56,995 nucleotides of DNA from an uncultured Verrucomicrobiales bacterium (lineage in GTDB: Bacteria > Verrucomicrobiota > Verrucomicrobiia > Verrucomicrobiales > DEV007): positions 1 to 56,995 of the forward strand of contig CALKOM010000024.1 in assembly GCA_938091905.1 (NCBI GenBank). Direction: 5' to 3'. Shown here in pieces: positions 1-4,440 of this stretch. Positions within the stretch are counted from its first letter, which is position 1. Every line of letters begins with the position of its first letter. The position numbers were made by a program, and so were the translations under genes. The notes beneath the pieces are model-generated. The model had not been told where the DNA came from and did not search any database. It saw only the letters and a program-made list of their open reading frames with translations.

Positions 1-2333
1 GTCGTCCGGAACAGGCCGGCGTGGTTGTACATCTCAAAGGGGAGGCCGAGCGGGTCCATCTTCTCATGACAGGTCCAACAGTATTTCTCTCGTGTGACGC
101 GCATGCGCTCGCGAAGGGTGGTCTTGGGCTCGTCCGGCAGCATGGCGTCCACGGTGATGGGCACATCGGGAATGCCGCCACCTAACAAGCGTTCACGGAT
201 CCAACGACCACGATGGATGGCATGATTGTCCATGGCATCGGAGTGCGAGACGAGCCAGGCGGGATGGGTCAGGATGCCCATGCGCTGGCCTTCCGGAGCG
301 CTGGCCAGGACGCGTTCGGGTTTCATGGAGCCATTGCCGAAGGAACGACGGCTGACCCTGGCAAAGATCTCGGGGCCTAACAGGTTCGCTTCGGCAACAT
401 CGACATTGCCTCGGTTGGGTCTCCTCTTGGTTCCTCGTTCGATTCGCTTCTTCACGCCAGCCAATTGCCTCTTGCGTTTGTCCAGAGACTTCTTGACCTG
501 CCTATCATCAGGACTGCTCTCCAAGCTGGTCTCAAGCTCAGCGACCTCGTTCTCTAACGTTTTAGCTTCAGTAAGGTCTTTCTTCGCATGCTCCTTGTCC
601 GCTTGCTTCTGCGCGACAAGCGCGACGCGTCTCTCCTCTTCGGTATGTCTCCGTCCGAAGTAAGTGTTGTCGGCCTTGGTCACGACCACTTGCTGAGTGG
701 TGAGCAACTCTTTGAGGACATCTTTGTCGCCTTCGAGAATGAGTTCGATCAGTCGATCCGTGCTCGCGGTCGCGTCAAACATGGCGCGGTAGTGTCCATT
801 GCCTCGGCTGGAGGCACCCGTATTCGCTAACGCGTTGGTGTCTTTGCAAATGTAGCCAGCGAGGTCGTGATCGAAGTAGTCGCGGAAGAAACGCAGGATT
901 CGCGGCTTCCTTAGACTGTCGTCGTTTAACATGCGGCCGACTTCGCGTTCCACGTCATTGCGCGTTCGCATGCGTCCTTCAACGATTGCTTGGCGAAGTG
1001 TCTCGTCGGGTTTGATGTAGCGCAGGGCGTGGTTCAGGGCCAGACCTAGCTCCCAATCCTGAAGCATGACGCGGCCGTGTTCGTCGGGCTTGCCGACTTC
1101 AGCCAACTCCGACCGGAATAGTGCATCGCGGTCGAGAAAGATGGCCGAAAGGCCCATGATGATGCCGTCTTCTCTGCCGACCTTGACAATGGAGTCCTTG
1201 ACGACATGGAGGTAGTCGTTGGATTCTTTCGTCGTGGGCGAGCGGAATGTTAGGGAATCAAATAGGTAGTCAACCGCAGCACGCAGGCGCTCGTCGGTGA
1301 CCTCAGTGTCAGGAAATTTCGACAAGTCGTAGACCGGAGTCAGCGGGCGCGTGACCTTCGTGCTATAGACCAGTGCTGTGGGCAGGCCACGGATGTCGCC
1401 CTCCATTTCGTAGGACTTTGGGTCGTCGGTGATCTGCTCTGGATTGGCGAGGCTCAACGGGCCGTTCGCCATGTAGCGAAGAATGTCCTCTGCCTTCCCG
1501 AGGATCTGCGTCGCCTCGGCGCTGTTGACAGTGTAAAAGTTAGGATAGTTCTCAAAGCCGTGCTTGCGTGCCGAAGAGAGGACCGCTGGCACGCTCTTGA
1601 CCGAGGTGGCGTAGGCCACGGTACCACCCTGCCACTTGATGATCCTGTCTGTCCCGAAGTAGAGCTTGAGCTCACCGCCGTGGTTGGTGGGAACGACATC
1701 GCCGCGAGTGCGCTGCCCAGGCTTCTTGGGATCGAACTTCGGCTCGGTGTTGATCAGTTCATTGAGGCGCGTGATGTGTTCCTGTGGCGTCACCCGCCAG
1801 ATGCGCGCTGGCGAGGACGTTGGCGCGATCCGAATGCCTTCGGGGAGGGGGCCAAAGAGGAGGTCATGATCGACAAAGTTGCCTTTGTTAGGATCGAGGT
1901 GGGCCTGGAAGCCACCCTTGTCCTCCATCTCGCGTTGCAGCTCGTTGACGACCCAATCGGAGAATCGCAGTCTCTCAACAATGTCAGGCTGCGATTGCTT
2001 CTTGGGCGGCATTTCCTGGAGCGTGACTTGAGCCCAGACCGACTTCCATACGGCTACGTTGGTTTCGTCTAGTGGTCCCAAATCGAGCAGCGAGAGATTG
2101 CCCTTGGCCGTGACATCGTCGTGGCATTCGAAACAATGCTTTTCCAAGAAGCCCTGGGCGAAGTCTTTGAATTCCCCGCGGATGGGCTCGCCGGGCGTGT
2201 AGGTGTCGGCAATGGCCGTGCCGAGTAGGGCAGCAACGGTTGCCGTCAGCAAGGCGAAGTAGCACGGGTTTGTAACCCGTGTCGTTTGGGGGAACACGGG
2301 TTGCAAACCCGTGCTACGTTCATGTACGTTCAT
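1..2333 (-). CDS. DUF1588-family (PSCyt/DUF1592-type) c-type cytochrome protein; 3' end runs off the window
   Basis: Absent from the ORF track because its stop lies outside the window. Manual translation from ATG 2333 gives [73 protein letters not shown] (signal peptide plus CxxCH). The same frame at the left edge reads [34 protein letters not shown]...[22 protein letters not shown], a DUF1588-like segment with a second CxxCH. The middle was not checked codon by codon. Partner DUF1552 gene is nearby. Confidence 0.85.
2259..2317. repeat. REP doublet (REPIN) 1, GTAG-type
   Basis: GTAGCACGGGTTTGTAACCCGTG (2259-2281, +) and GTAGCACGGGTTTGCAACCCGTG (2317-2295, -) are inverted about a 13-bp spacer. 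Each unit is GTAG plus an 8-bp stem (CACGGGTT/AACCCGTG) with a 3-nt loop. Confidence 0.93.
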
Positions 2334-3022
2334 TGTTGTTCGTCTTTGAAATCCCATCCGCATTCCCGCCAAGTTTCACTAACCCAACGCCTATCGTCTC
2401 CTTGTCCAAGATTCGCTTTGGCAGGATTCTTCCCGATGTATTGTAAACATTGCCAAAGATGCTCGGGTTCTCTGACGATCCGATCATAGCTTTCCTCCTG
2501 CCAAAAAGCACCAGATTTCCCGGACTCTGCATTGATCTTGCGAGCGCTTTCACGTTTGATGCTCCTTAAGATTTGTTCCAAGGAATAGTCTCCTAGCGGT
2601 CGAAGCAATGTGTGCACGTGATTTGGCATCACGACAAATGCGCCAGTCTCATGACGCTTCATGTGAAAGTAGAGCAGTGCGTCATGAACAATCTTGCGAT
2701 TGGAGTCATTCCGTAATACGCAGCTGCCTAATCGCTGATCAAGCCAACCTTCTGACTTCTTCATTACCATCTTGGCGTGCTGTTTCCAGAGTTCGTCCTG
2801 ATTGGACGGCCAGTTTTTCAGTTCTTGAGCCAATGTATCACGTAAAGATTTCAATTCGTTGAGTTTTGATTTTGGGAGCGAATCAACGAGGCGAAAGGTT
2901 ACGAAATAGGTGGCTCCTTGTTGCCTCCAATGGGGGAGGTTGCGTTCGTAGAGTTGGATCTCTCCATCAGGATCCAACCCTTGAAATTCAGGCGGCGGAT
3001 CTAGGAAGAAGTGACCTTTCAT
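2330..3022 (-). CDS. REP-associated tyrosine transposase (RAYT; IS200/IS605 Y1 HUH superfamily)
   Basis: Motifs [22 protein letters not shown] (HUH), [12 protein letters not shown] and QYIGKNP (catalytic Tyr). Flanked on both sides by REP doublets. Confidence 0.93.
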
Positions 3023-3040: not shown

Positions 3041-3104
3041 ATGGCACGGGTTTGTAGCCCGTGGGTGTGTGGGGGGGGAACCACGGGTTGCAAACCCGTG
3101 CTAC
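3041..3104. repeat. REP doublet (REPIN) 2
   Basis: Degenerate ATGGCACGGGTTTGTAGCCCGTG (3041-3063, +) and exact GTAGCACGGGTTTGCAACCCGTG (3104-3082, -), with an 18-bp G-rich spacer resembling that of doublet 1. Confidence 0.92.
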
Positions 3105-3117
3105 GCTACGTGACACA

Positions 3118-4440
3118 TCACACCAGAAGCTCTTTGAGAGGACCGCTGCCGGTGTCGAACTTCTTGGCGAGCTTCTCGCTCATGTTGAAGCGCTCGCACT
3201 CAATGCCGGAAGCGCGAAGGATGGTTGCGTAGAGGGCATTGATAGGGCGCTTGCCGTCCAGTTGCGTGAACCGACCGGTCTTGAAGGCGCCGTTTGCATT
3301 GCCGAGAAGCATCACAGGCCAATTGGCCCCGTTGGTGTGCTGCTTGTCGGCGTTGTTACTTGTGTAGACGATCAGCGTGTTGTCCATCATGGTGCCGCTG
3401 CCTTCGGGCACTTTTTCCAATTCCTCCATGAGCTTCACTAACATGCGGCTGTTGTATTGGCGGATCTTGATCCAGATCGGATTGTCTGGCTGTTTCATGT
3501 GACCGAGGTTGTGCCCTTGCTGCTCGATGCCCAGACCCTTCCACGCGCCGAAGATCTCGCCACGGCCTGAACCAACGGTGAGTACATTCGTGATGCCTGA
3601 CTTCAGCGCGGAGATGCCGAGGTCCAGGAGAATGTCGTGCCAGTCGGTCTCGAATTCGGGTGTGGTATAACGGTCGTCCACCTCGGGTGCAAACGTGCGA
3701 AGATGGTCAGAGACATTGCCGAGACGGTCACGCAGACCGTTGATGTCATGGAAGCCCTGCACGTACTGCGCGTAGCGTTCTTTGTCAGGGCCTGGTAGCA
3801 CAGCTCCCTTGGCGGCTGCCAACTGCTCGATGCGATCGAACATGCTGGACCGAGCCTCATGTTGCTTGCGGATGTCACCCTGGGAAATCCCGCCGTAGAG
3901 CATCTGATAGAGATGATTCGGGTTGGAGTGCATGAAGATCGGCTGGCCCGCGCCGCTGGCAGAAAGGTTGGCGACCGTGGGCTTGCCCCGCATGTTCTCC
4001 ATGGAATCCATGCCAATGCACAGATGAGGTAAGAGCGTTTCCGGCAGGACCTTGCTCAGTTCGTAGTCGATGGTGGGTCCGCTAGGAGGGACGCCATCGC
4101 TTCCACGATAGCCGCCGAGCGCGCCAAAGAAGGCGCTGTGTGCGGGGCTGGTGTGGAGGCCGTGCAAACCGTTGATGATGTGGAGACGTTCCCTGAAGGG
4201 CTCCAATGCCTCAATGGGCTCGGGCAGCTTTGCTGTGGCCAGCGAGCCGTTGTTAGCCATTCCCGTTGGGACACACGTAGCCGGGTCGAAGCCTTGATTC
4301 TGCATGAAGAAGATCACGCGTTTCGGACCACCGGAACCAATAGAAGCCGCTCGGCTGATTCCCGGGAAGATGGAGGATCCCAGAGCGGTGCCGGCGCTGG
4401 CAGCCATTCCCTTGAGCAGATTTCTACGATTCAAATGCAT
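3118..4440 (-). CDS. DUF1552 family protein
   Basis: N-terminal NRRNLLK (Tat-like), [29 protein letters not shown] and [16 protein letters not shown]...H...WPVMLLG are typical of DUF1552. Usual partner of DUF1588/1592 genes. Confidence 0.85.

Follow-up and report, generated by a model that had tools for sequence, protein, structure and literature searches.

The closest described systems are REPtrons, which in the accounts of PMC6006769 and PMC3116915 comprise a gene for an HUH-tyrosine transposase, flanked on either side by inverted GTAG REP doublets, and copies of the REP elsewhere in the genome; Table 1 of PMC6006769 assigns to the TnpA-Y1 subclass 2.7 the motifs [ND]HVH, WQ and YI[LR][NQ]NP together with long REPs. 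REPs are normally extragenic, though in-frame GTAG REPs have been published: Di Nocera et al. (2013, PMC3733652) describe GTAG REP dimers read as 20–30 in-frame residues, most numerous in Opitutus terrae (Verrucomicrobia), and caution that N-terminal REPs are in many cases misannotated and do not code. Repeats joined to the 5′ ends of genes have been reviewed as well, among them a Neisseria REP2 that supplies a translational start (Delihas, 2011, PMC3184786).

Here we analyzed a window of 56,995 nucleotides (the whole stretch of DNA studied, contig CALKOM010000024.1 of an uncultured Verrucomicrobiales bacterium), in which a REP-RAYT-REP cassette lies inside a conserved gene pair. An overlap of stop and start codons in the form ATGA is a geometry of translational coupling. 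A preliminary description of the locus, which was right that REPs normally lie outside genes, had proposed that a REP doublet alone was inserted after the second codon of a gene and that a 10-bp duplication rescued the reading frame. The comparisons reported below argue instead, with reasonable probability, for the insertion of the whole cassette.

Organization of the Locus

All features lie on the minus strand, in the order DUF1552 gene, REP doublet, RAYT gene, REP doublet and a cytochrome-c/DUF1592/DUF1588 gene that runs off the contig end. The DUF1552 (HXXSHH) gene (3118–4440; Pfam PF07586, E = 2e-33) is the upstream partner in a conserved two-gene unit, and the GTG on its stop codon (3119–3121), from which translation now gives a 6-codon peptide, is the likely ancestral start of the second gene. 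The whole cassette (3104–2259) is situated between this GTG and the h-region of a predicted signal peptide. Its left flank is a GTAG REP doublet (3041–3104) whose 3′ arm is degenerate; strain comparison revealed a 1-nt indel polymorphism in the spacer, at 3070, and no reading frame through this doublet is conserved in the window species. A 7-codon mini-ORF (3041–3019), common to the window and the metagenome locus L141, begins in the degenerate arm, and its stop overlaps the RAYT start.

The RAYT (TnpA-REP) gene (2330–3022) encodes 230 amino acids. An ATG (2331–2333) overlaps its stop codon (2332–2330) as ATGA and is likely the present start of the downstream gene; the hairpin of the second GTAG REP doublet (2259–2317) follows 16 nt on. 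This doublet, the right flank of the cassette, has 59 nt and lies in frame as codons 6–25. After it come the retained h- and c-regions of the predicted Sec signal peptide (2208–2258, F26–A42, with A-I-A before D43), recognized by hydropathy and by alignment to G005, an allele without the cassette. The downstream gene (1–2333) has the Pfam architecture PSCyt1-PSD4-PSCyt3 (cytochrome c/DUF1592/DUF1588), and in other strains its product has 877 amino acids and the frame is unbroken. According to PMC5615132, the function of this DUF1588-type family is not known, and its members are predicted to be periplasmic or cytoplasmic.

The RAYT and Its REP Family

The RAYT protein carries the HUH motif and the catalytic tyrosine of its class (NHVH at residues 134–137, FWQ at 173–175 and YIGKNP at 195–200). 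It scored above the cut-off of Pfam Y1_Tnp and reached 78 bits with NF047646 (cut-off 80, E = 7e-22). As in a REPtron, GT[AG]G-tagged REPs are found on both sides of the gene (3104–3041 and 2317–2259 in reading direction). The downstream doublet consists of inverted REPs with 24-nt arms that are 96% complementary, and the RNA fold of 2360–2240 has −49.2 kcal/mol, with none of 200 shuffles equally stable; the doublet thus forms the hairpin expected of a REP or REPIN (z = −5.8). By a comparison of motifs only, the protein resembles the TnpA-Y1 subclass 2.7 in [ND]HVH and WQ and differs from it in YIGKNP, which stands in place of YI[LR][NQ]NP. Identification as an IS200/IS605 insertion sequence was rejected, as NF033573 gave 24.6 bits against a cut-off of 55 and the other two matches in the window genome are 43 and 36% identical.

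The cassette REP is present in 7 of 134 genomes of the family, and its copy number is low for a REP family, with only 4 matches in the window genome (3 of them at this locus) and 12 in G028, a genome from another genus. A tandem pair on another contig of the window genome (C72:1562–1620) represents the only other copies there; the same genome holds two more distant RAYT-like genes (C95:55185–55829 and C109:14820–15428) and a second REP family. In G089 (L221, C37:73964–74500), each unit of a tandem array of ~170-nt units contains a close variant of the cassette REP.

A tagged doublet starts between −4 and +57 of the RAYT stop in 19 of 28 family RAYTs, compared to 4 of 1400 shuffles. As a doublet past the stop is usual for these RAYTs, the simplest view of the doublet at 2317 is that it forms the right flank of the cassette, with ATGAAC 2323 inside the cassette. 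An RTG is found on the RAYT stop in 8 of the 28 family RAYTs and in 13 of 60 metagenome RAYT-like loci. A built-in outward start as a general property of such cassettes was rejected, since none of 11 inspected loci reads through the flanking doublet into a long gene. Among the other RAYT matches, L188 and L194 each have an apparent secreted-protein gene whose start lies on the RAYT-like stop, without an intervening REP doublet, and L145, L146 and several more are RAYT-like domains inside long open frames of about 900–1600 amino acids. L224 (G004) and L226 (G150), whose genomes are assigned to different genera, have identical-looking REP flanks and neighbor ORF starts, through either recent transfer or binning overlap.

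The Ancestral Junction

Orthologous loci were collected from 61 related genomes and from a scan of one genome per species. Both genes were present at ≥65% identity in 90 loci (loci below 65% were dropped), and removal of 6 duplicate junctions left 84 distinct ones. In 65 of these 84 the start codon of the cytochrome-c/DUF1588 gene overlaps the stop of DUF1552 (61 at −4, 4 at −1). The distance from start to CxxCH is 43–56 residues in 61 of the 65 overlap-start orthologues, and K or R occurs within residues 2–6 in 61 of the 65. The allele of G005, from the same genus and without the cassette, matches the window at 98% identity in the final 83 nt of DUF1552, after which it continues with VKKRAFTLALTAISLLGTA; its protein start past the DUF1552 stop reads VKKRA-F, and by eye the h-region of the window aligns with it from the sixth residue on. 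The orthologue starts together with the empty allele make GTG 3121, which now opens only six codons, the likely old start of the downstream gene, with the whole cassette between it and the h-region. The proposal that the doublet alone entered after codon 2 of a retained start is not supported by this likely ancestral arrangement.

The junction of the two genes has received other inserts. At L004/L093 (G029) the remnant of an unrelated RAYT, with a REP doublet of another kind, lies at the same post-DUF1552 position, upstream of a retained normal start; the same hexamer flanks both sides of the insert, which represents an independent landing. Planctomycete loci (L046, L055, L058, L066, L068, L075, L089, L085, and L097) contain inserts of 200–1700 nt, several with hairpin repeats; a normal-looking start follows the insert, and those of L085 and L097 carry an ORF of no assigned identity. 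At the Planctomycete loci L051, L067, L096, and L065 a different GTAG REP is found, of which each genome holds 1–6 copies matching the pattern exactly; it lies in frame within the n-region in three of the genomes and between genes in the fourth. The DUF1552/DUF1588 junction looks like a recurrent landing site. Beside the cassette, the 3′ part of DUF1552 (3274–3481 and 3118–3200) shows dense synonymous differences between strains (dS 0.16, against 0.03 in the downstream gene), and this, with the 98% identity to G005 over the last 83 nt, may indicate recombination.

A Sister Allele in Another Genus

G028 carries the same cassette at the same site, with identities of 83% for the gene, 73% for the RAYT and about 90% for DUF1552, and in a quick tree of 82 rows its allele and that of the window are sisters (SH-aLRT 87). 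Measured from the WDF motif, the G028 RAYT stops three codons earlier, at a non-homologous position, and yet its stop overlaps an in-frame ATG. From there the frame crosses a 59-nt doublet, whose arms are near-identical and whose spacer is unrelated, passes through 72 nt more with a degenerate REP, and reaches the h-region. The 10-nt repeat is absent, and TTGAAT is found where the window has ATGAAC.

The three segments measure 30/59/51 nt in the window and 24/59/114 nt in G028, and the differences of 6, 0, and 63 nt are all multiples of 3. By our own estimate neutral change would preserve the frame in this way about once in nine cases, with stops and the ATG left uncounted, and shared ancestry limits the weight of this figure. 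The two known cassette lineages do share ancestry, so the frame may be inherited, and the frame used here is easily open through REP arms. A simple 10-nt duplication alone cannot convert the 24-nt spacing of G028 to the 30 nt of the window. A DNA search of 401 genomes of the order found the cassette in the window genome (G000) and G028 and in no third lineage; a protein search with residues 1–70 returned 4 proteins, only 2 of them REP-coded.

In G028, an open frame of 257 amino acids runs from the old GTG at the end of DUF1552 across the upstream doublet, where GTAG has become GCAG and an in-frame stop is lost, into the RAYT. In the window species this read-through is blocked, by two stops in the window allele and by a frameshifting indel in others.

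Start Codon and Signal Peptide

ATG 2333 is the only accessible start among the candidates: its opening energy is 4.4 kcal/mol, compared to 19.8 for ATG 2323, 29.8 for GTG 2297, 32.5 for TTG 2306 and 34.2 for TTG 2252, and its rank was stable across footprints from +10 to +19. The coordinates and arithmetic first given for the 59-nt doublet (2317–2259) were confirmed, as ATG 2323 opens 25 codons and then meets a stop, while ATG 2333 is in frame with 25 residues ahead of FALL, 20 of them REP-coded. GTG 2297 was rejected as a start, being GCG in 3 of 4 spanning runs and buried in the hairpin. Between the doublet and the CxxCH motif, no in-frame ATG or GTG was found in the window genome or in G028.

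CxxCH proteins need export for haem attachment, and the signal peptide should therefore matter. By script and by eye, the predicted peptide has a hydrophobic h-region and an A-x-A site (A-I-A before D43); the best 12-residue hydropathy was 2.33 by script, within the orthologue range of 1.3–3.1. The predicted n-region has 25 residues with two R and one E, a net charge of only about +1. Long n-regions occur naturally, as 4 of the 65 orthologues have 74–90 residues. Three of these, from Planctomycetes, contain a different dispersed GTAG REP in frame past the old start; one has a good downstream ATG, one a plausible TTG, and L051 alone offers no other candidate start.

It is likely that the gene is translated from ATG 2333, with coupling to the RAYT stop and a REP-coded n-region. 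Overlaps of an RTG with a stop, followed by a long open frame, are common in the window genome (179 of 359 pairs). The hairpin begins 12 nt past the RAYT stop in the window and 15 nt past it in G028. According to PMC12306157, which cites an earlier study, E. coli ribosomes are stalled by a hairpin ≤15 nt away, and at this distance it could lower coupling at the RAYT stop.

Alternatively, the REP might be non-coding, with translation from TTG 2252 (a TTG also in G028), the doublet acting as an RNA element and the upstream open frame being incidental. The published caution about frequent misannotation of N-terminal REPs (PMC3733652) applies here, both genomes have in-frame TTGs past the last REP, the one in the G028 h-region opens at a moderate 12.1 kcal/mol, and gene callers picked TTG 2252 in 4 of 15 cluster members among those listed. 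We nevertheless consider this unlikely. TTG 2252 lies 7 nt from the stem and requires 33–35 kcal/mol to open; it would give a 15-residue signal without a basic residue, only 39 residues ahead of CxxCH, where all 65 overlap-start orthologues have at least 43, and TTG starts only 2 of 65 genes in this family. Nor would it account for the length differences between the two genera, which preserve the frame.

The Repeat at the RAYT Stop

What had been described as a 10-bp duplication is a 9-nt exact match with a period of 10 nt (2315–2333; copies 2333–2325 and 2323–2315, the tenth base being C in one and G in the other), and its second copy overlaps the REP, taking in its first three bases. A comparable repeat occurred in 85 of 20,000 random 60-nt windows of the genome and at 3 of 97 other RAYT 3′ ends, and because of this rarity it is probably a real duplication. 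Without it, a start on the RAYT stop would miss the frame of the gene, in agreement with the idea of a frame rescue, yet G028 keeps the frame without any such repeat. The duplication also would have shifted the start outside the hairpin.

The initial proposal corresponds to an order in which a RAYT landed upstream of a retained MN start at 2323, the doublet then inserted after codon 2, and the duplication restored the frame, with translation from 2333. The duplication does exceed chance, 18 of 61 overlap-start orthologues have N as their second residue, a start reading MN-FALL would lie 43 residues from CxxCH, the orthologue minimum, and L004 offers a precedent in its unrelated RAYT remnant upstream of a retained start, at the same junction and with the same hexamer on both sides. 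This sequence of events is still quite unlikely in our view. A doublet just after the stop is the normal flank of a RAYT (in the 19 of 28 and 4 of 1400 shuffles mentioned above), and ATG 2323 lies in the RAYT’s own frame and is a TTG in G028; ATGAAC 2323 is thus most simply cassette sequence and not the original start of the gene. The reconstructed start would have no K or R in residues 2–6, where 61 of 65 orthologues carry one. G028 has the cassette, no ATG at the homologous place and an intact gene. Finally, the REP-excised alleles that had been suggested as a test did not appear, as neither excision joints nor empty alleles were found in the contigs of 8 sequencing runs (X8, X10–X16), in which rare variants are dropped.

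Selection and Strain Variation

The downstream gene is under purifying selection: in the mature region dN/dS was 0.155 against strain L141 (16 synonymous and 8 nonsynonymous changes) and 0.095 against G028, and 7 of the 8 listed differences between X11 and the window in this region are synonymous. The REP-coded peptide varies between strains (V13A in 4 of 10, V20G in 1 of 10). The RAYT differs from that of L141 by 8 nonsynonymous changes and 1 synonymous change (Fisher p = 0.007 against the 8 and 16 of the downstream gene), and its pattern of change within the species shows no departure from neutral (p = 0.69). R44G occurs in 7 of 14 listed variants covering the residue, and R44 is invariant in 29 of 29 other homologues; the window RAYT has R97 in place of a G that is present in 26 of 29 homologues. 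Between genera, the RAYT dN/dS of 0.04 is unreliable as dS is saturated at 4.4.

The open chain from GTG through RAYT to gene in G028, and the drift of the RAYT protein with a constant stop, suggest that the RAYT might have become a domesticated ribosome relay, retained not as an enzyme but for the place of its stop and its open frame, since it would bring ribosomes over the cassette from the old start to the new; we regard this as a doubtful possibility. On paper the G028 chain is complete, from the old GTG through the RAYT to the stop-overlapping ATG, the second doublet and the gene, and all 15 listed RAYT variants share the stop position while the protein drifts, including R44G. However, the upstream link is broken in the window species, G028 is a single assembly, a nonsense mutation would not be expected among only about ten changes, and clustering would hide truncated variants.

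The insertion could also have largely silenced the gene, which would then be decaying and too weakly transcribed or translated to matter. There are two strong hairpins no more than 15 nt from upstream stops, and RNA-library contigs of two studies end at 2343 and 2350, just ahead of the doublet, a weak hint in this direction. Silencing is very unlikely, however, given the dN/dS values within the species and between genera and the unbroken 877-residue frame, and RNA-library contigs cover 1900–2117 inside the gene as well. Fragments in two RNA libraries that match stretches of the RAYT and the downstream gene may reflect transcription; in both of two RNA runs, no contig bridged the downstream doublet.

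The downstream junction was spanned by contigs of 4 of the 8 runs (X8, X10, X11, and X13) and by the metagenome locus L141, with no indel in 2259–2333, and is apparently fixed among the strains seen. For the runs with a word share of 63–82% (X10, X11, X12, and X14), the lower share reflects strain differences or coverage gaps. An assembly artefact, conceivable in a metagenome-type assembly of 212 contigs in which repeats can mis-assemble, is refuted for the junction and for the duplication within it by independent strains that share the identical junction and differ from the window by 3–29 substitutions in the stretches compared or by about 2% overall.

Discussion

On balance we favor the insertion of a whole REP-RAYT-REP cassette, after which the gene would have restarted on the RAYT stop and the REP would be read as a cleaved n-region. 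This reading, which is reasonably probable, builds on the anatomy of the cassette, the overlapping start in most orthologues, the matching cassette and ATGA overlap of G028, and the purifying selection on the gene. A single ancestral insertion would have removed or displaced the short basic n-region. As RAYTs of this family often end in RTGA, only the frame would have had to match, and in the window lineage the duplication of 10-nt period would have set it and put the start just outside the hairpin. Ribosomes finishing the RAYT would restart at the stop-overlapping ATG 2333, and the elongating ribosome may then unwind the REP hairpin. With the predicted signal of 42 residues cleaved after A-I-A, the REP-coded residues would be absent from the mature periplasmic c-type cytochrome.

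If this is true, even the overlap of a stop and a start codon, where an operon leaves the least room, can receive a mobile cassette, and the downstream gene can be kept working through the cassette’s own stop as a new coupling point. It would also give a concrete reason for a RAYT gene to persist after constraint on its protein has ended, which bears on why single-copy RAYT genes stay. We found no report of a gene re-coupled through a RAYT stop in the open-access literature, searched by titles and the beginnings of abstracts and with most subscription journals outside its range.

Compared with the REPtrons described in PMC6006769 and PMC3116915, the locus has the same HUH-tyrosine transposase gene, the inverted GTAG REP doublets on both sides and a few matches to the REP elsewhere in the genome; it differs in lying inside a coupled gene pair, where it parts a gene from its likely start, and in the very low number of REP copies (4 in the genome). 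Like the intragenic GTAG REPs of PMC3733652 and the Rickettsia RPE inserts as described there, the REP dimer would add 20–30 in-frame residues at the N-terminus; those are inserts in an existing frame, whereas in the window the start itself would be new and come from the transposase stop. With the Neisseria REP2 (Delihas, 2011, PMC3184786) it would share a repeat-associated sequence that gives a chromosomal gene its start, but the start in the window is placed beyond the REP, where the cognate transposase gene ends, and such a start is no general trait of the cassette family. A REP-coded signal peptide by itself is ordinary, and the new part is the re-coupling through the transposase stop. The 4-nt ATGA overlap has the same geometry as that of the ancestral DUF1552/DUF1588 pair; unlike in ordinary ATGA coupling, the upstream partner is now the gene of a mobile element, and 16 nt further on comes a hairpin of about −49 kcal/mol.
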